Shown here: piece by piece, positions 30,308-54,172 of the stretch
How the letters are laid out: every line of letters begins with the position of its first letter
Numbering within the stretch: the first letter of the stretch is position 1
Source of the DNA: Phycisphaerae bacterium
Lineage (GTDB): Bacteria > Planctomycetota > Phycisphaerae > UBA1845
Assembly (NCBI GenBank): GCA_963666835.2
Contig: CAXXGO010000006.1
Location: 1,024,001 to 1,088,000 of the forward strand
Direction of reading: 5' to 3'
DNA: 64,000 nt
The notes under the pieces: model-generated
The model's database searches: none
What the model was told of the DNA's origin: nothing
Seen by the model: the letters and a program-made list of their open reading frames with translations, nothing else
Made by a program: the position numbers and the translations under genes

Positions 30308-31100
30308 AGTGGACGTTCCCGCGGGGCTGTGGAACCGATGCGAGAGCTGCGGGCACATGGTCTACGAGAAAGAGGTCGCGGAGGCTCTTCACGTTTGCCC
30401 GGAGTGTGGGTTTCATCGCCGGGTTGACGCCCGGGTACGGATCGAGCAATTGGCGGACCCCGGCACGTTTGAGGAGTTTGCCCAGGATTTGCGGTCGGCC
30501 GACCCGTTGGAGTTCGTTGATCGCATCCCTTACAAAGACCGCCTCGAGGAAGTGCAGCGCAAGACGGGCGAGACCGAGGCTATCGTGGTAGGGCAGGCCT
30601 TCATCCGCGGGCGGCGCGTGGTGCTCGCGGTCATGAACCCTTCGTTCATCATGGCCTCGATGGGCGCGGTCGTGGGAGAGAAGGTCACCCGGGCCATCGA
30701 ACGGGCCGAGGAAGAGAGCATCCCTCTGGTGATGGTCACCGCCTCCGGGGGGGCTCGGATGCAGGAGGGCATGGTGTCTTTGGTGCAGATGGCCAAGACC
30801 TCCGCAGCGCTAGCCCGTCTGGATGATGCCAAAGGTCTATACATCGTCGTGGCCACCGATCCAACGACGGCCGGCGTGGCGGCCAGCTTCGCGAGTCTTG
30901 GGGATATCATCCTGGCCGAGCCGAAGGCGATGATGGGTTTTGCCGGCCCGCGGGTGATTGCCAACACCATCAACGCCGAGCTGCCCGAGGGGTTCCAAAC
31001 CGCCGAGTTCATGCGCGAGCACGGCTTCGTCGACCGCATCGTTCGCCGTGCCAAACTCCGGTCGGAGATCGCGCGGATCATCGATTATTGCGGGAAATAA
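30297..31100 (+). CDS. accD: Acetyl-CoA carboxylase carboxyltransferase beta subunit
   Basis: Zn finger CESC..CPEC, SMGAVVGEK, SGGARMQEG, GFAGPRVI, FQTAEF. Confidence 0.97.
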   Translation: MQDRVDVPAGLWNRCESCGHMVYEKEVAEALHVCPECGFHRRVDARVRIEQLADPGTFEEFAQDLRSADPLEFVDRIPYKDRLEEVQRKTGETEAIVVGQAFIRGRRVVLAVMNPSFIMASMGAVVGEKVTRAIERAEEESIPLVMVTASGGARMQEGMVSLVQMAKTSAALARLDDAKGLYIVVATDPTTAGVAASFASLGDIILAEPKAMMGFAGPRVIANTINAELPEGFQTAEFMREHGFVDRIVRRAKLRSEIARIIDYCGK

Positions 31101-38695: not shown

Positions 38696-40510
38696 GTGGT
38701 TCGCGCATTCACGTACGATCGCGAGCGGGTCATGGCCGCAGCGGGATCGTTGTTCTATTGGTGGAAGTACACCGGCAAGCAGACTCGGGTCGGGCCGGAT
38801 GGGGCGGAGACTGTCACGCAGCTCGACGCGGCCGGGCGGGTTGAGTCGGTTTTGCGGCGGCGGGCAGACACCGGCGCGACGCTGCTGAATGCCGAGTATT
38901 CGTACTATGCCAACGGGCAGCTTCGCCGGGTCGATTATGCCAACAGCGCGGCCGTCGAGTACGCGTACGACGCGGCCGGGCGGATTACGGCGATCAATCA
39001 CCTGAACGCCGCCGGTCAGATCATGTTGCGGCTGAATTACGAATACGATCCGTATGACGTCCGCGGGCTGCCGATTATGATCACGGAAGAACAAGACACG
39101 CTGGCCGGCACGGTGACGACGGCCGTGACGACGTTTGAGTATGACGGGCTGGGACGGCTGAAACACGAGACGCGGGTTGGCGATCCGGCGTCGTCCTATG
39201 ATCTGGCGTACACCCACGACGCGGGTGGGAATCGGCTGAGCACGATCGACGAGGTGAACCACGTCGAGACGGTGTATCATTACGACGTCGAGGACGAGGC
39301 GGAGTACGTCTACGACAGCTTCAATAACCGTTTGATGTATTTCGAGACGTTCGATACGAGCGGTGCCGAGGCTGAGCTGGTCTCGACCACGTACTACTTC
39401 TACAACGATTACGGGAACGTCACGCGGAAGGTGACGGAGTTGGCGGACCCCGAGCCGGGCGAGAAGAAGTATCGTTCGACGTATCTCAAGTACGCGACGA
39501 ACGGGCACGCCGTGACGTATCTCGTGGGCGAGGAGTGGACCTATCCGGAGTCGGATTATGCGGTGACGTTTGCCCGGGAGTTCTGGTATGATGGTGCCCG
39601 GCAAAGGTTCTTGAATCGCGAGTTTGATCCGGTCGCGTTGACGGGTGACAACATGGTCGTGCTATCCGAAACGTGGTCGGATTATGCGGGCGACAGCATC
39701 TATGCGGATTTCACGCTTAACGGGTCGACGTTGACCGTGCCGCGGATCTACGAGCCCGGTATCGGCAAGGTGGAAGACCCGTTTGGCACCTTCGATCGAG
39801 CGTACTACCACGCTGATCATATCGGCACGACGCGGCTGCTCGGCTGGAGCGACTTCTTCGAACCGCGCGACTCGGCCGTGTACACCGCCTTCGGTAGCTT
39901 GGTCACCGGCACAAACCACCGCTACGGCTACGCCGGCAAACACGGCTACCAGGCCCACGCCGAAACCCCCTTCCTCCACCTCGGAGCCCGCTACTACGAC
40001 CCGGACACGGGCCGGTTCTTGCAGCGGGATCCGATCGGGATATTCGGCGGACTGGATGTGTATGAGTATTGCTCCAGCAATCCGGTGGCCTCGATCGATC
40101 CGAGTGGAAACGGGAACTTCGGCAGCCTCAATGGCGATGCGCAGTATCGTAGTTGGCGTGAACAGGGTTACTCACCGTCCAGCGCCAGCAGGCAAATGGA
40201 ACGCATGGCACCCGATGAGTTCAAGGCCGGACTGATGGTCGGTGTAGGTCTCGGAACGGCCATGGCGGCGTGGTACGCGGCGCCTTACATCGCCAGCGCG
40301 GCAGCTGCTGCGCCAGGGGTCGTCGCCGGTGGTGCTCGGGCCGTCGCCAGCGGTGCTAGAGCGGCGGGCCCCGCTATCGCATGCGGCGCAAGGGCAGCTT
40401 GGCCGTATGTTCGACGAGCAGGAGCGTCGGGACTGAGTGAATTCTGGAAGGGGGCGGCCTGGACAGCCGGCGCGCTGGTGAGCGCCTATGCAGCGAGCCA
40501 GCTTCTTTAG
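38696..40510 (+). pseudogene. Orphan Rhs cassette 2 (3' core + CT2)
   Basis: Begins at [10 protein letters not shown] with no N-terminus or RBS; DPSG then a Gly/Ala-rich tip. Confidence 0.85.
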
Positions 40511-40541: not shown

Positions 40542-43188
40542 ATGAACAGTTGGTTCGTCCCGGGATGTGTTGCGGCGGTATTGCTATCTAGGCTGATTGG
40601 CGGGCGCCTATGTAAGCGGTTCGCCGATCGCATGTTCTCCACGGAGCTATCGCATTTTGGTGATGCTCGGGATAGGAAGGCAGCATTGGACAATGCGAAC
40701 CCGTTCAGCGCAAGCAAGTCCCTGTGGCGGTACCCGCTGCCCCTCGTGCAGGGGCTCGCCGCGGGGACGATCGCGACGCTTCTAGTCCTCCTGCTACGCA
40801 TTCCGAGCTCTGTCCCAGATGCACTTGCGTGGGGTTCGATCCTGTTTGTTATATTCGTTTTGACCATGTTGATTGAGCTATGGTCGGCCAGAAGGGCGAT
40901 CACTCGCGCGCTTCGCGAGCGACTGATTGCGGAGGGTACTATCGTTTGTCGTCGATGCGGCTACGATCTTCGCGGACAGATAGAGCAACGCTGCCCGGAG
41001 TGCGGGTGCGCCACGGAAAGCCTGGGAAAGGAGGATTGCGACATGGGTCCTTGATGACTGCATGAAACCTTTCGCCGGGACCCGGCAGGTATCCAATCCT
41101 GCCCGGCAAAGTAGACCGACAGCCGGAAGCGAGTCTTGCGTGGTGTACGGGTAACCTGCACTGCGAAGCGTAGACAGCGAGTGTGCAGGCCGTGTGATCG
41201 AGCCTCGAAAGAGGGCTATTCGTGGGAGCCGACGTCGTCCGCACTGTACGGAAGGCAGCATCGGATCGCCGCAATCGGTCTGGCGTATCCGATCCCACCG
41301 GGGTCTAAGAGCAGGGCATGTACACACGAGGGTCCCCCAGGAACGTGGGAGGTCCTGTCATCTCCACCCGGAACAAAGCGGCTTCGGGAGAGCCGGAGCC
41401 AATCTCCTGGCCCAGGGATCGGCGTCGGATTCCATGGGAGATACGAAGAGCCGGCGCTACGGGTGGTATTGCCAAGCGAAGGAAACGAAGTGCGGCGAAA
41501 CGGGTGGCAGGAAGTCGGAGTACCGAATAGTACCAAAGAACCGGGGGAATCCTACCCGTGGGAGACCCCGTGGAGGAAAGGCGGTACCGAATCATGGAAC
41601 CGTTAGAGGGACACACGCCGAACGCCCGGACGTTCGAGAGCGTGTCAACAAAACGACGGCGGATAGCGATGCGTGCGAAGCGAAGTCCGGAGATGAGCTT
41701 CACCACGTTAGCCCACCACATTGACTTAGCGTGGCTACGTTCTGCGTACGATCAGGTTCGCAAGGATGGAGCCCCCGGCGTCGACCGAGAGACGTCGGCC
41801 TCCTACGCAACGGATCTGAGGGCAAACCTCCAATCCCTGTTGGACCGTGCGAAGTCTGGGTTGTACAAAGCCCCGCCGGTGCGTCGGGTTCATATCCCGA
41901 AAGGCACCGGTGGCAAGACTCGGCCCATCGGCATTCCCACGTTCGAGGACAAGGTCCTGCAACGTGCGGTGGCGATGGTGCTGGAATCGATCTACGAGGA
42001 GGACTTTCTGGACTGCTCGTATGGCTTTCGCCCCGGACGCAGCGCCCATCAGGCGTTGGAGGCTTTGTACGAGCAGCAGAAAGCGACGCGGGCGGGGTGG
42101 ATTCTTGACGTGGATGTTCAGGGATTTTTCGATGCTCTGGATCATGCTCATCTTCGGGAGTTTCTCAAGCGACGGGTGCGAGATGGTGTACTGACACGAT
42201 TGATTGGTAAGTGGCTGAAAGCAGGCGTGCTGGAGGACGGACGGGTTACCCGCTCGACCACCGGCAGCCCGCAAGGGGGCGTGATCTCACCGATCCTGGC
42301 AAACGTCTATCTGCACTATGTGCTGGACGTTTGGTTTGAGCAGGAGGTGATCCCACGGCTCCACGGCCGGGCGTTTCTTATCCGCTATGCGGACGACTTC
42401 GTCATTGGGTTTTCCGATGAACGTGATGCCCATCGGGTGTTGGCGGTACTACCGAAGCGATTCAGTAAGTATGGCCTGACTGTTCATCCGGAGAAGACGC
42501 GATTGGTCCGGTTCAATCGGCCGAACGATCGCGACTCTACAGCCAAGGGCGATAGGCCGGAGTCGTTTGACTTTCTCGGCTTCACGCACCATTGGCGGAA
42601 GTCCTGGCGAGGGTACTGGGTTGTCTCTCGTAAGACGGCCTCTGATCGCCTGAGCCGCTCGCTCCGCAACATCTCGGCGTGGTGCCGTGACCATCGCCAC
42701 CTGAAGGTGCGCGAGCAGCATGCACGGCTCACGCAGAAGATACGCGGGCATTATGCCTACTACGGGATTACGGGTAATGGCAGTTCTCTGACAGCGTTCT
42801 GGGAGGGCGTCAAACGTGCGTGGCGGAAATGGCTTGGGCGAAGATCCCAACGCAGCTATTTCAACTGGGCAGCGTTTGTCCGCCTCATGGAGCGTTACCC
42901 GCTCCCCAAACCGGTCATCGTGCATTCAGTATACCACCGACAGCGAAACCAAGATTCGAGGAGCCGGATGCGGTAATTCCGCACGTCCGGATCTGTGGGG
43001 GGCCTGGGTGAGCAATCACCCAGGTCTACCCGACGAACGCGTTCGACATTCAGGCGATGATCGACAAGTCAGTTGAAGGGAAGACGGTGCTGGCGCCGGC
43101 GAGAGACGAAGAACAGTCGAGTGCCGATACAACCGATGGGCAAACAACGGGATCGAGTGACGGCTTGACGACCGACCATAGTGATTGA
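40542..43188 (+). CDS. Immunity-position TM + Zn-ribbon protein split by the intron (exons 40542-41005 and 43035-43188)
   Basis: Spliced product reads CRRCGYDLRGQIEQRCPECG|NAFDIQ..DHSD*, matching paralog 53576 (CPECGNPF). Confidence 0.8.
41006..43034 (+). mobile_element. Group II intron, 2029 nt
   Basis: 5' GTGCG; domain V GAGCCGGATGCGGTAATTCCGCACGTCCGGATC; 3' end CTACCCGAC; internal RT ORF. Confidence 0.92.
41594..42976 (+). CDS. ltrA: Group II intron reverse transcriptase/maturase without an endonuclease domain
   Basis: RPIGIPTFEDK, SYGFRPGRS, PQGGVISP, RYADD, FDFLGF; start uncertain. Confidence 0.95.
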   Translation: MEPLEGHTPNARTFESVSTKRRRIAMRAKRSPEMSFTTLAHHIDLAWLRSAYDQVRKDGAPGVDRETSASYATDLRANLQSLLDRAKSGLYKAPPVRRVHIPKGTGGKTRPIGIPTFEDKVLQRAVAMVLESIYEEDFLDCSYGFRPGRSAHQALEALYEQQKATRAGWILDVDVQGFFDALDHAHLREFLKRRVRDGVLTRLIGKWLKAGVLEDGRVTRSTTGSPQGGVISPILANVYLHYVLDVWFEQEVIPRLHGRAFLIRYADDFVIGFSDERDAHRVLAVLPKRFSKYGLTVHPEKTRLVRFNRPNDRDSTAKGDRPESFDFLGFTHHWRKSWRGYWVVSRKTASDRLSRSLRNISAWCRDHRHLKVREQHARLTQKIRGHYAYYGITGNGSSLTAFWEGVKRAWRKWLGRRSQRSYFNWAAFVRLMERYPLPKPVIVHSVYHRQRNQDSRSRMR

Positions 43189-46998: not shown

Positions 46999-47215
46999 GA
47001 TCCACCTGGTGTGCAGAGCCTGCGAAGTCGGCATCGACGGGAAAAGCACAGGAACACAGCCTGTCGAGGCGAGTAGGCGCGCGCGTTGTGGAGCCACGCC
47101 CGTTCGAATTGGAATCGGGCAGGCCTGTGCAGACTGTCACAGTGGCGGTGTCGTCCTGGTCGGGCTGCGAGAAGCCGCCGGGCGCGGCGCGCGTACGCGC
47201 ATTGTGGGGATCGGC

Positions 47216-47644
47216 ATGTTTGCGATTGCTGTGCTGGTCATCTGCCTGACAGTGGGTGTCGTTGCGTGGGTCGTCGGCGTGCTCCTTGCGACGTATACGT
47301 CGTGGAACGCGTCGACAAGGACAGTCGTGAACTTCCTCGTGGTAACGCCTATACTTGGCGGACTCCTGGCATCTGCGACTGGGGCACTTCCCGTACGCGT
47401 GGTAATGTGCCCGCACTGCAGGCGTATCAGGCGATTGGGGTTTGGGAAACGGGTGCCCACGGAATGGCAGCATATTGTGGAACCGACAGGCTTCTGCATG
47501 GCTTGCGGATATTCACTCCGTGGAATTACTGAGCAGCCGAGGTGTCCAGAGTGCGGGGATCCGTTTCCGAAGGAGTGGCTGAAGATCACCCGTCAAGCGG
47601 ATGAGGAGCCCTCGGTCGAGTATGACGTTGTTGCGAAGGAGTGA
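47216..47644 (+). CDS. TM + Zn-ribbon immunity-like protein
   Basis: Two TM segments, CPHC, CMACGYSLRGITEQPRCPECG; start uncertain. Confidence 0.7.
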   Translation: MFAIAVLVICLTVGVVAWVVGVLLATYTSWNASTRTVVNFLVVTPILGGLLASATGALPVRVVMCPHCRRIRRLGFGKRVPTEWQHIVEPTGFCMACGYSLRGITEQPRCPECGDPFPKEWLKITRQADEEPSVEYDVVAKE

Positions 47645-47756: not shown

Positions 47757-49052
47757 TTGCTCCGTTCGGTGCCGCGGGTTGGCGATCCGGCGTCGTCGTT
47801 TGATCTGGCGTACACGCACGACGCGGGCGGGAATCGGCTGAGCACGATCGACGAGGTGAACCACGTCGAGACGGTGTACCATTACGACGTCGAGGACGAG
47901 CCGGAGTACGTCTACGACAGCTTCAATAACCGGCTGATGTATTTCGAGACGTTCGATACCAGCGGTGCCGAGGCTGAGCTGGTCTCGACGACGTACTACT
48001 TCTACAACGACTACGGGAACGTCACGCGGAAGGTGACGGAGTTGGCGGACCCCGAGCCGGGCGAGAAGAGGTATCGTTCGACGTATCTCAAGTACGCGAC
48101 GAACGGGCACGCGGTGACGTATCTGGTGGGCGAGGAGTGGACCTATCCGGAGTCGGATTATGCGGTGACGTTCGCCCGGGAGTTCTGGTATGATGGTGCC
48201 CGGCAGCGATTCTTGAATCGCGAGCTTGATCCGGTTGCGCTAACGGATGGCATTGTGGATGTGGAATCAGAAACCTGGTCGGACTATGTAGGCGACAGCA
48301 TCTACGCCGACTTCACGTTTGATGGGTCGACCGTGACCGTGCCGCGGATCTACGAGCCGGGCATGGGGAAGGTGGACGGCTTATCTGTCGGTGGCGCGGC
48401 TTACTACCACGCCGATCACATCGGCACGACCCGTCTGCTGAGCGGGTACAACGGCAGCGCGGACGATGAGTCAGTATACAGCGCCTTCGGAGGTCTGGTG
48501 TCCGGCACAAACCACCGCTACGGCTACGCCGGCAAACACGGCTACCAGTCCCACGCCGACACCCCCTTCCTCCACGTCGGAGCCCGCTACTACGACCCGG
48601 CAACGGGGCGGTTTCTGCAGAGGGATCCGATTGGGATTGATGGGGGGTTGAATGTGTATGTGTATGCACTAAACAACCCCGCGTTGCAGGTCGATCCTTC
48701 TGGGCTACACTGGGCGATTGATGGGCAGCCGCAGCATCATCTTCCCGATATCGATGGGCACGGGATTACTCCTCCTCCTGCGCCTTCGGTACGTCCGCCT
48801 CAGCCATTGGTTCCAACACCCGTTCCCTATGCGGATGACTGTGTAATGACTTGTGTCCGAATATACCTAACCCCATTGCTATACTGTAAGCCAGCGTCCT
48901 TCGGTCAGATTGGAAGGCACGAAGATAACCAAGACAACTGTGAAGACCTGGGTGGCACCTGGGGCTTCTACTCAGACGAAGACCCGACTTTCACGTGGAT
49001 CGGCCATAAACTCATCAGGAGGCGTGGTAGGCCAAGCCGTGGTGGTGTTTGA
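47757..49052 (+). pseudogene. Orphan Rhs cassette 5 + Pro/Cys-containing CT5
   Basis: Hairpin fused directly to RVGDPASS; core motifs intact. Confidence 0.85.
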
Positions 49053-49531
49053 TCGACAGTACGTCTTATAATGAAGCGATAATCGGAGAAGCGGGTGAAG
49101 GTCCTTCGTCGCGCGGAGTCATGCCCGCAATAACGATCCATCTTATCGAGGAGCATGGGAAGCCGATGTATCAGGAGAGAACTCACGAGTGGATCGCGCG
49201 AGTGTTTGGAGCTGTGTTCGTGTTTCTTCTGGTAGGCGTTCTTGCTTTCGATCTGCTAAGCAGATTGCATATAGCCGACCACCAGTGGCGACTGCCTGGC
49301 ATGCTGTTTCTTGCCGGTAGTGCGGGACTGGGTGCCTCGTTAATCGTCATTCGAATCACCCGACGAGCACGGCCGACGCCACCTGGGCGATGTCGCAAGT
49401 GCGGGTATATTCTATTCGGGGCTCCGGGACCCAACTGTCCGGAATGTGGGACGCCTTTTACTGTCTCGGGCACCGAGGGCAAGATGACGAATAACGGGGT
49501 CGGGAGTCGTTCTGACGGCGGATCGGAGTGA
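49049..49531 (+). CDS. TM + Zn-ribbon immunity-like protein for CT5
   Basis: Two TM segments, CRKCGYILFGAPGPNCPECG; true start may be further downstream. Confidence 0.7.
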   Translation: MIDSTSYNEAIIGEAGEGPSSRGVMPAITIHLIEEHGKPMYQERTHEWIARVFGAVFVFLLVGVLAFDLLSRLHIADHQWRLPGMLFLAGSAGLGASLIVIRITRRARPTPPGRCRKCGYILFGAPGPNCPECGTPFTVSGTEGKMTNNGVGSRSDGGSE

Positions 49532-51685: not shown

Positions 51686-53551
51686 ATGAGTGCCACCACG
51701 CGGCACCGGGCGGGTCAGTCCGTTCGGTGCCGCGGGTGGTTTGTGGGTCGCGCATTCACGTACGATCGTGAGCGTGTTCAGGTGTCGGGAGAGACAACGT
51801 ATTGGCACACGTACACCGGTAAGCAGACGCGGGTCGGGCCGGATGGGACGGAGACTGTCACGCAACTCGACGCGGCCGGGCGGGTTGAGTCGGTTTTGCG
51901 GCGGCGGGCAGACACCGGCGCGACGCTGCTTCAGGCCGAGTATTCCTACTTTGCCAACGGGCAGCTTCGCCGGGTCGATTATGCCAACAGCGCGGCCGTC
52001 GAGTACACGTACGACGCGGCCGGGCGGATTACGGCGATCAATCACCTGAACGCCGCCGGCGGCATCATGTTGCGGCTGAGTTATGAATACAATCCGCACG
52101 ACGTGCGTGGGCTGCCCACCGTTATCACTGAGGAGGTGGACACCGGAATCAGGGCCGAAACGAGGCTCTATTACGACGGGCTGGGGCGGCTGGCTCGCGA
52201 GAAGCGTACGCCGGGGGATAAGATCAACCCGTGGTACGATCTGAGGTACACCTACGACTTAGGCGGGAATCGTCTGACCGCGGTCGACGAGGCCAACGAC
52301 GTCGAGACGGTGTATCATTACGACGTCGAGGACGATCCGCAGTGCGTCTACGGCAGCGCCAACAACCGGCTGATGTACTTCGAGACGTTCAAGACGGCCA
52401 CCGGTCACTACTTAGTCTCGACAACGTATTATTACTACAACAACTACGGCAACATCACACGGAAGGTGACGCAGCTTGCGAATCCGGAGCCCGGGGAGCG
52501 GGAGTATCACGCGACGTATCTGAAGTACGCGACGAACGGGGAAACAGTAACGTATCTGCTGGGCAAGGAGTGGGATTGGAACGGGTACACCGCCTCCGAA
52601 GTCACGAATTATGCCGTGACTTTCGGCCGGGAGTTCTGGTATGATGGAGCCCGGCAGCGGTTCCTGAATCGCGAGTTTGATCCGGTCGCGTTGACGGGTG
52701 ACAACATGGTCGTGCTATCCGAAACCTGGTCGGATTATGCCGGCGACAGCATCTACGCGGATTTCACGCTTAATGGGTCGACGTTGACCGTGCCGCGGAT
52801 CTACGAGCCCGGTATCGGCAAGGTGGAAGACCCGTTTGGCGTCCTCGATCGAGCGCACTCCCACACCGACCACATCGGTACAACCCGCCTGCTGAGCGAC
52901 AACGAGGGCCTGTCGAAAGACGAGTCCCTCTACACCGCGTTCGGTAGCTTGGTATCCGGCACAAACCACCGCTACGGCTACGCCGGCAAACACGGCTACC
53001 AATCCCACGCCGACACCCCCTTCCTCCACGTCGGAGCCCGTTACTACGACCCGGATACGGGTCGGTTCCTGCAGCGGGATCCGATTGGGATTATGGGCGG
53101 GGTAAATGTGTATGAGTATTGCTCCAGCAATCCGGTGGCCTCGATCGATCCGAGTGGCACCTGGAACCATGGCACTCACCAGGGCAATGCGCAGTATAAG
53201 AGCTGGCGTGAACAGGGTCATTCGCCGTCCAGCGCTAGCAGGCAAATGGAACGCATGGCACCCGATGAGTTCAAGACCGGACTGATGGTCGGTGTAGGTC
53301 TCGGAACGGCCATGGCGGCGTGGTACGCGGCGCCTTACGTCGCCAGCGCGGCCGCTGCTACGCCAGGGGTTGTCGCAAGTGGTGCTAGAGCAGCGGGCCC
53401 CGCTATCGCATGCGGCGCAAGGGCAGCTTGGCCATATGTTCGACGAGCAGGAGCGTCAGCAGGGGGCAAGTTCTGGGATGGCTACTGGGGGACGCTAGGA
53501 AAGGCTGCGGCTCTCGGCACCGCGGGCTGGCTGATCTCCAAGTTACTGTAG
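51686..53551 (+). pseudogene. Orphan Rhs cassette 7 + CT7 (paralog of CT2)
   Basis: [10 protein letters not shown] start; tip shares SWREQG..AAWPYVRRAGAS with CT2. Confidence 0.85.
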
Positions 53552-53575: not shown

Positions 53576-54172
53576 ATGCGGATGTTCTCTTTCTCCTTTG
53601 CGGCTCTTGTTTCGGTGGGTGTCGCAACGACGCTTCTGTCTGGACTGATCGGTGGGCGACTACGTGTTGCATTGGCATCTCGTATGTTCGCCATGGAGCT
53701 ACAGCATTACGACGGCGCCGCCGGGAACATCGCCTTGGAGCAAGCATTCCCTTTTACCAGGAAGCGGTATGTGTGGAAGGTGCCCCTGCCTTTCATTCAC
53801 GGCGTTGCCTCCATGACTGCGGCCATGATATTGGTGTTCGTCTTGCCGATTCCCGAGGATATACCAGATGTGTATGTCTTGGGGTTCTTTGTAGTCATTA
53901 TTGACGTGTTGATCATGTTGGTTGAGTTGCACTTGGCTAGGATAGCGATCATTCGTGTGCTTCGCGAGCGACTGATTGCGGAGGGTACTATCGTCTGTCG
54001 TCGATGCGGCTACGATCTTCGCGGACAGATAGAGCAACGCTGCCCGGAGTGCGGGAACCCGTTTTCCCTGACGCCGGAGAACGCGTCGACCCGCGGACAA
54101 AGCGGGCCCCCGCCTATGGAAGACACAAGGCAGACAAAGGGAGGCGTTTCCCGGGACGACCATTGCCATTGA
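53576..54172 (+). CDS. TM + Zn-ribbon immunity protein for CT7 (intron-free paralog of 40542)
   Basis: GGAGG RBS; three TM segments; CRRCGYDLRGQIEQRCPECG. Confidence 0.8.
   Translation: MRMFSFSFAALVSVGVATTLLSGLIGGRLRVALASRMFAMELQHYDGAAGNIALEQAFPFTRKRYVWKVPLPFIHGVASMTAAMILVFVLPIPEDIPDVYVLGFFVVIIDVLIMLVELHLARIAIIRVLRERLIAEGTIVCRRCGYDLRGQIEQRCPECGNPFSLTPENASTRGQSGPPPMEDTRQTKGGVSRDDHCH

Follow-up and report, generated by a model that had tools for sequence, protein, structure and literature searches.

Most bacterial group II introns reside in intergenic DNA or in mobile elements, and the known cases of motif homing have orthologous genes or other mobile elements as targets. One example, Ll.LtrB, is of the IIA type and possesses an endonuclease. 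Ll.LtrB and Ef.PcfG introns are found in relaxase genes, and the conserved His triad of relaxases provides the codons into which Ll.LtrB homes, giving rise to chimeric genes (PMC7947834, which cites Staddon et al. 2004). A 5-nt loop in domain V and an extra bulge in Id3 are given as traits common to classes E and F in the available part of PMC3753933. Here we describe an intron that very probably represents a class E clade retrohoming into the DNA that encodes the Cys-Pro-Glu-Cys-Gly (CPECG) half of a zinc knuckle, a motif that recurs in some 37-122 genes per genome of the order, genes that otherwise have no relation to one another. The features of the window, i.e. the entire 64,000-nt stretch analysed, are collected in Table 1.

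Table 1. Intron, exon, target and neighbouring features in the window
Feature	Position	Strand	Basis or remark
Class E group II intron of 2029 nt, full length	41006..43034	+	boundaries, Rfam, relatives, RT
Domain I core, Rfam group-II-D1D4-6, 146.6 bits	41093..41313	+	Rfam
Domain V (AGC triad, 5-nt loop UAAUU) and domain VI (bulged A43028)	42961..43034	+	
Intron-encoded RT/maturase, YADD, without endonuclease domain	41594..42976	+	ATG 41594; open from GTG 41558
IBS1 GTGCGG	41000..41005	+	pairing, covariation
IBS2 GCCC, -13 to -10, Cys and Pro codons	40993..40996	+	column covariation and complement test
EBS1 CCGCAC, loop of bulged Id3 hairpin 41228-41256	41239..41244	+	fold, covariation; T41245 is a seventh pair here
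EBS2 GGGC, 4 bp in this copy	41213..41216	+	column covariation and complement test
Host gene 5' exon, small membrane protein (two hydrophobic segments)	40542..41005	+	ATG 40542
14-nt target, codons Cys-Pro-Glu-Cys-Gl/y	40992..41005	+	position table of 34 sites
Host gene 3' exon, 50-codon tail	43035..43188	+	stop ends 43188
Rhs cassette upstream of host gene	38696..40510	+	
Intron-free paralog with empty target 54041-54054	53576..54172	+	57% aa identity over 145 aa
Empty target in knuckle gene 47009-47644	47543..47556	+	
Empty target in knuckle gene 49049-49531	49436..49449	+	

A sequence-only reading of the window had placed a group II intron at 41006-43034, and this is borne out: the element begins with GTGCG and ends in ...ACCCGAC (final AC), Rfam recognizes the domain I core (RF02005) and, at 42959-43034, RF00029, domains V and VI are present, and the RT frame is intact. 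The structural features that define group II membership are found, namely GUGYG...AY ends, domain I core, AGC triad in domain V, bulged A in domain VI and, in domain IV, an RT with YADD. The encoded protein matches RVT_1 (E=5.5e-38) and GIIM (21.5 bits, under the 23-bit cutoff); no HNH family match was found in this frame, which stops at domain V. The minimum free energy fold of the whole domain was uninformative (z=-0.82), and local folding and covariation were relied on instead. The intron is intact and would be able to splice and to move; its mobility is inferred from the 12 dispersed copies in one related genome (G533, see below).

The intron belongs to bacterial class E (IIE) and has no endonuclease. 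Its RT clusters with the disrupted RT on pRmeGR4b (SH-aLRT 98, 44% identity), the sole class E reference in the comparison, with class E as sister to class D. The pRmeGR4b RT is taken as that of S.me.I4 on account of its replicon and its disruption, as described in the available part of PMC5894124. Reference RTs of D, F/g3, g1 and g2 and unclassified ones lie outside the clade at 32-36% identity, and classes F, g1-g4 and D were rejected on this basis, the reference set being without g4 or basal F. Class C (IIC, hairpin-targeting) is ruled out by the 6-nt EBS1, the covarying EBS2 and the targets in coding motifs. The domain V loop and the bulged Id3 stem fit IIE or IIF; the Rfam D1D4-6 match is insufficient for a class assignment, since B.th.I3 (g2) also matches.

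The 5' exon of the host gene ends in a zinc knuckle, C-RR-CGYDLRG-x5-CPEC-G, and the intron splits the Gly codon within CRRCGYDLRGQIEQRCPECG between its second and third bases. Removal of the intron in silico gives ...CPECG-NAFDIQ... in a protein of 205 aa, as expected from the earlier proposal that splicing restores CPECGNAF. The unspliced frame was also rightly said to end in CPECG-CATES with the zinc ribbon preserved: it closes with CPECG-CATESLGKEDCDMGP and a stop at 170 aa, all four cysteines being kept. Two further observations from the same source, an unoccupied site with the same 5' exon near 54040 and a copy of GAGTGCGG near 47549, proved correct. In the paralog the last ~94 exon bases before the empty site differ from those of the host at one position, and the sequence continues GAACCCG; the second occurrence lies at 47549, and three occurrences of this 8-mer, compared to 4.4 expected, do not exceed chance. 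The paralog matches Zn_ribbon_3 below the Pfam cutoff, and a Pfam search of the host gene gave no known immunity family. Host gene and paralog each directly follow an Rhs C-terminus and co-vary with it, and the C-termini of the two Rhs proteins (the cassette of Table 1 and 51686-53551) are 80% identical. By position alone, the host gene is a fair candidate for an Rhs immunity gene, a role that would be incidental to the intron lineage.

The heptamer CCGCACT at 41239-41245 is reverse complementary to AGTGCGG, the end of the exon, and occupies a 7-nt hairpin loop in the local fold, in accord with its earlier description as an exact complement in a domain I loop. Its assignment as EBS1 stands for CCGCAC because of covariation across relatives; the seventh pair is specific to the window copy. 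Loci in which the 5' end is defined and domain I complete number 73 and represent 47 distinct introns at 93% identity, and the EBS1 column forms at least five of six Watson-Crick pairs with its own exon end in 41 of these 47 (mean 5.28 of 6, compared to a mean of 1.76 and a maximum of 2.49 for shuffled exons). An unbiased column scan identified 41239-41244 as the partner of -1 to -6 and 41212-41216 as the partner of about -9 to -13; pairing of the EBS2 column averages 4.47 versus 3.35 (maximum 3.77) for shuffled exons in 39 introns, with the base facing the Pro third position (-9) unpaired in the window copy. Of the three pairings that the sequence-only reading expected from a structural model, EBS1 and EBS2 were thus recovered by covariation, in keeping with IIB-type target recognition, and the EBS3 column was not located among the few relatives with clear 3' ends. 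The +1 base is G in five, A in three and T in two of ten near-identical copies in one genome (G533) and, therefore, no strict EBS3-IBS3 pair appears to be in force. The exact 7-bp EBS1 match is the luck of the window copy; elsewhere in the lineage, mismatches at -3, -6 and -7 are tolerated. AGTGCGG itself occurs 875 times in the source genome. EBS1 alone is also insufficient for target specificity, since two introns outside the clade (L103 and L106) have EBS1 CCGCAC with a different EBS2 and lie at non-CPECG sites.

Tabulation of the 5' exons of other copies placed 34 of the 36 5' ends of the lineage at the same Cys-x-x-Cys-Gl/y codons, nearly all CPECG, rather than at unrelated sites; the proposal that a multicopy protein motif serves as the homing site is therefore upheld. 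The 34 sites come from 14 genomes (11 genera; families f1, f5 and f6; one order) and two metagenome contigs, with unrelated flanks, and 15 of them belong to one genus. They share the consensus TG[CT]C[CT]N[GAT]A[GAT]TG[CT]GG, with 11 of the 14 positions invariant or nearly so. Besides the window copy, the source genome (G000) holds three 5' remnants of 443, 346 and about 55 nt, each within the CP[EK]CG codons of another gene. Five genomes were searched in full with the whole intron as query. In G533, 12 of 12 copies (10 full-length, two partial) occupy 12 CPECG-type sites; nine of these are 99.1-99.7% identical, with intact ORFs and unrelated flanks. G534 contains two full-length copies and one partial copy, and G541 two 5' remnants; two extra G534 remnants, at CPECG and CSECG, were left out of the count as the query contained exon bases. 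A search with domain I gave matches in 46 other genomes of the 279 searched in the order, an undercount of copies because two candidates were scored per genome. The metagenome scan for the EBS1 hairpin, which preselects EBS1 and not the Cys-Pro codons, returned 55 matches, seven of them introns and 48 not. The junction of one copy (L211) is shifted by one base, and this copy has 30 gaps resembling read errors. The 3' end of the G050 intron continues G-TPFE..., consistent with the motif. In a class-wide sample with few genomes of the order, the junction pattern was present in two of 401 genomes, including the source genome. As a weak lead to the host phylum, ESM Atlas gave Planctomycetota clusters at 0.83-0.84. 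The sequences show many independent sites, and at each of them the intron parts the second base of the Gly codon from the third.

The RTs found at CPECG sites (five rows, 65-74% identical to the window RT) form one branch (SH-aLRT 97) in a tree of 67 rows, retained after dropping 24 duplicates and fragments from 91, and nine clade sequences likewise share one branch in a domain I tree (SH-aLRT 95), both from a quick search with no bootstrap. The best match of the short CPECG remnants is a clade member in 14 of 14 cases. Sister introns were not found at the motif (0 of 42 distinct), nor were motif sites seen among the further "other" 5' ends (0) or among phylum-level loci with a readable 5' end (0 of 12). 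Two clade members are off the motif: L012 in G050, whose EBS1 and EBS2 still match it and whose 5' flank is foreign, and L109, in which the 3' end of the intron is fused directly to its own 5' end. A comparison of two of the 12 full-length G533/G534 loci across both genomes for empty orthologous alleles found no ortholog, and the joint of 41005 to 43035 was not present in the contigs of four runs, a contig-level result that is uninformative on splicing or an empty allele. As to strand bias, the GC skew of the source genome is weak and uneven, and its four sites are too few for statistical power. We conclude that one clade is probably specialized on CPECG codons and is, apparently, undescribed.

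The 14-mer encoding CPECG is found 75 times in the source genome, compared to 2.0 expected, and 37-122 times in five relatives. EBS1 (CCRCAY) is set against the third Glu base and the Cys and Gly bases, and EBS2 (GG[G/A]C) against the Cys-Pro bases. Apart from +1, the positions that vary among the 34 sites are -12 (Cys), -9 (Pro), -6 (Glu) and -3 (Cys), each the third base of its codon; variation confined to third positions is expected of any set of sites in a conserved motif and is, by itself, no proof of design. G residues of the EBS elements face both Cys third positions, so that C or T (TGC or TGT) is allowed by wobble; the Pro third position is mostly unpaired, and that of Gly is whatever base follows the insertion. 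Within the clade, EBS1 varies only opposite -3 and -6 (CCGCAC, CCGCAT and CCACAC). The CCGCAU intron of G533 lies at GAA in nine of nine canonical sites, compared to 65 GAA and 26 GAG in the genome (p=0.041), and in G442, for which no 3' exon was retrieved, a TGT-CCG site faces EBS2 TGGAC. The pairing is nevertheless loose, as three of five introns with an EBS1 ending in C occupy A(-6) sites and both CCACAC introns occupy C(-3) sites.

These data also bear on an alternative that we regard as unlikely, in which insertion takes place at any EBS1/EBS2 match and survives only in dispensable, redundant knuckle genes, so that the motif acts as a filter. EBS-only matches in the source genome number 400, and 312 of them are not knuckles, which favours this alternative; since only 88 are knuckles, occupancy of knuckles at four of four sites has p=0.002, but with A-7 required, 78 of 131 matches are knuckles and four of four is unremarkable. 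T-14, A-7 and G-8 are near-invariant yet unexplained by pairing in most members, as a filter would allow, and the remnants do show one (see below). Against this stands the recent burst in G533, where 12 of 12 copies are at the motif, including costly mid-gene sites, one in the first knuckle of its gene (L187) and two in broken frames. Moreover, a filter for harmlessness would retain intergenic and antisense sites, and none of the 34 is of this kind, except possibly the two in broken frames.

The sequence-only reading had viewed the intron as exploiting immunity genes at low cost, and specialization on toxin-immunity genes, with insertion nearly free because the zinc ribbon survives unspliced, is very unlikely as a general account. 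By position it suits the window copy: the Rhs C-termini that precede host and paralog are 80% identical, and none of the four cysteines is lost from the unspliced protein (170 versus 205 aa). All seven Rhs cores of the source genome, however, lie in one locus, only four of 76 double-knuckle CP[EK]CG genes have an Rhs core upstream within 2.5 kb, and an Rhs-like motif occurs in the flanks (up to 1.5 kb) of three of 32 occupied loci, a census that largely refutes the immunity and low-cost reading. Low cost also fails as a general claim. The spliced tails of 13 full-length insertions, two of which are in broken frames, measure 1, 4, 5, 5, 19, 46, 51, 109, 130, 194, 220, 361 and 373 aa, and six of the 13 insertions would remove more than 100 residues unless spliced. 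Tails of this length follow 28 of 72 empty sites (p=0.88); tails at occupied sites thus resemble those at empty ones, and insertion is not steered to harmless positions. The early in-frame stop was rejected as an adaptation, as sister introns with other targets have one too (p=0.38).

The remnants lend the immunity account some support, since 5' remnants lean to C-terminal knuckles: an open frame of at least 120 aa lies upstream of 14 of 16 5' remnants versus six of 14 full-length copies (Fisher p=0.019), in a post hoc test that left out G050 and the two metagenome sites, all contig-limited. Knuckles with at least 120 aa upstream are mostly C-terminal (tail of at most 60 aa in 38 of 47, versus three of 25). 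Neither remnants nor full-length copies, however, differ from the source-genome background (p=0.13 and 0.14, respectively). In G000, G533 and G534 taken together, the six remnants are all of the 5' kind (p=0.031); a single 3' remnant occurs in G541 and another in G550. The pattern fits selection for remnants that still encode a protein ending in a knuckle and closed by a stop. Passive spread of the knuckle segment together with its intron, through duplication or gene conversion and with no retrohoming, is extremely improbable and is contradicted by the unrelated flanks: the near-identical ~94-nt knuckle segment within the otherwise 57%-identical host and paralog indicates that knuckle DNA does convert, but exons differ upstream of -14 and from +1 between intron copies that are 99% identical, and third positions within the 14-mer vary between copies.

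Retrohoming into the CPECG codons would proceed, by what is known of the class, with the intron RNA excised as an RNP that reverse-splices into the sense strand. Without an endonuclease, priming would occur at the replication fork, as described for RmInt1 in the available parts of PMC5894124 and PMC4424553, and EBS2 would be used in homing, as PMC3753933 proposes in the part available. G opposite the Cys third positions would let both TGC and TGT be read, with the four-fold third positions of Pro and Gly left unread; T-14, G-8 and A-7 are perhaps read by the protein or merely accompany the motif. The intron would gain a large, constantly renewed pool of targets. Its cost would not be avoided on insertion and would depend on splicing, with non-splicing remnants persisting mainly at C-terminal motifs. 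We raise only tentatively that the lineage serves to shuffle domains in frame within the CPECG gene family: because the copies in unrelated genes all interrupt one motif at one codon phase, recombination or trans-splicing could join any N-terminal to any C-terminal part through an intact knuckle. If so, the intron may have helped build a modular, lineage-expanded knuckle family, and dead 5' remnants would supply genes with new, intron-derived C-termini (GCATES... tails).

The clade has retained one five-residue host motif over three families and down to 65% RT identity, with synonymous positions tolerated. It offers a natural test of the minimal base pairs for class E homing and of a role of EBS2 in homing though not in splicing, as suggested in the available part of PMC3753933. 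The lineage also equips a large and unstudied family of zinc-knuckle genes with a fixed-phase point for splicing and recombination, and the intron explains a recurring false C-terminus (CPECG-CATES...) in annotations.

Several described systems resemble this lineage, as judged from the available parts of the respective accounts. Ll.LtrB and Ef.PcfG share a fixed position in a conserved protein motif with many empty sites, as well as recent copy bursts and the chance of in-frame exon shuffling (PMC7947834); the targets of Ll.LtrB, however, are orthologous relaxases on conjugative elements, whereas the CPECG lineage addresses 37-122 genes per genome sharing just 14 nt. The class E introns S.me.I4 and Cl.be.I2 likewise encode RT-X without En, are sister to class D, and have the 5-nt domain V loop, the extra Id3 bulge, EBS1 and EBS2 (PMC3552965, PMC3753933); the sections available of these two descriptions contain no motif-targeting lineage, and the window copy is distinguished by an EBS2 of just 4 bp and a free +1 base. 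RmInt1 and RmInt2 (class D, in IS), TeI3c and the Methanosarcina twintrons also multiply via a multicopy conserved site (PMC5894124, PMC2882425, PMC4424553), and the En-minus fork priming of RmInt1 (PMC5894124) is like the mechanism proposed here, but their targets, as described there, are near-identical mobile elements or introns rather than a host motif in diverged genes. The IIB1 introns Avi.groEL and EcKTE56.groEL are similarly monophyletic, tied to a host codon position and keep the meaning of the codon (PMC12584367); they use start and stop codons, in contrast to the internal Gly codon of the CPECG lineage. Given the Ll.LtrB, RmInt1, TeI3c and groEL cases, homing to a motif or multicopy site is already known as a strategy. 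Our search found no literature account of this target, which may still be listed in an intron database or table. The CPECG lineage is thus a known strategy applied to an undescribed and unusually large target family.

The gene that hosts the main intron lies within an Rhs locus, described in the table below together with the other features located here. By a motif-based count, all of the Rhs cores in this genome (7/7) fall within the locus. Several of its cassettes end in hydrophobic C-termini and are followed by small membrane genes, five of which encode a zinc knuckle. The host gene and its intron-free paralog share ~94 nt of knuckle-coding DNA that differs at a single base, although the encoded proteins are only 57% identical. 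This near-identity points to a recent gene conversion or a module swap.

Positions of the features discussed in the text
Feature	Position	Description
Rhs locus	window 33721-56625	N-terminal part split; several orphan C-terminal cassettes in a row
Knuckle segment, host gene	window 40912-41005	end of the 5′ exon of the main intron
Knuckle segment, paralog	window 53961-54054	intron-free
Empty target, first	window 30396-30409	perfect, in a CPECG motif
Empty target, second	G000:C1:2055829	perfect, in a CPECG motif
Head-to-tail junction	L109:740-741	minus strand

Perfect empty targets are also found in two further CPECG motifs, which, from their motif context, resemble the zinc fingers of two enzymes, acetyl-CoA carboxylase (beta subunit) and topoisomerase I. 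Probable housekeeping genes therefore carry the intron target as well.

Three members of the clade that targets CPECG codons are unusual. On a metagenome contig of 1911 nt (L109), the 3′ end of the intron is joined precisely to its 5′ end and the ORF is circularly permuted, an arrangement that fits a circularised intron or, alternatively, a tandem dimer. At L012 (G050:C11), foreign sequence takes the place of the 5′ exon, with the switch exactly at the junction, where another element has possibly inserted. The copy in G280 (L171) is degenerate: a deletion has removed its middle, leaving domain I and the final bases of domain VI, and its site still encodes CPECG. Separately, a high-depth contig in run X3 carries the EBS1 loop typical of G533 (a genome with 12 clade copies), with a 2-base insertion at 41243, which indicates another organism of this intron lineage in that run.

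G000, the genome of the main intron, contains a second class E-group intron (RT identity 45%), with 12 copies at 12 loci (e.g. L004-L010). Its flanks resemble copies of a hairpin repeat family, and its C-rich EBS1 matches the G-rich run with which these repeats end.

Sister introns outside the clade occupy other sites. One in G017 is present in three copies (L014, L021 and L026), each 3′ of the same short repeat ending CCAAACGAACC. Another (L017 in G021), with the EBS1 CTTTTT, is inserted directly after an A6G run at the end of what is presumably an IS3-like orfA, and apparently sits at the frameshift site of that gene. In Sorangium sp. So ce726 (L064), a sister intron follows codons that spell DIRKFF, a motif from the RT encoded by another intron, and the locus is probably a twintron.
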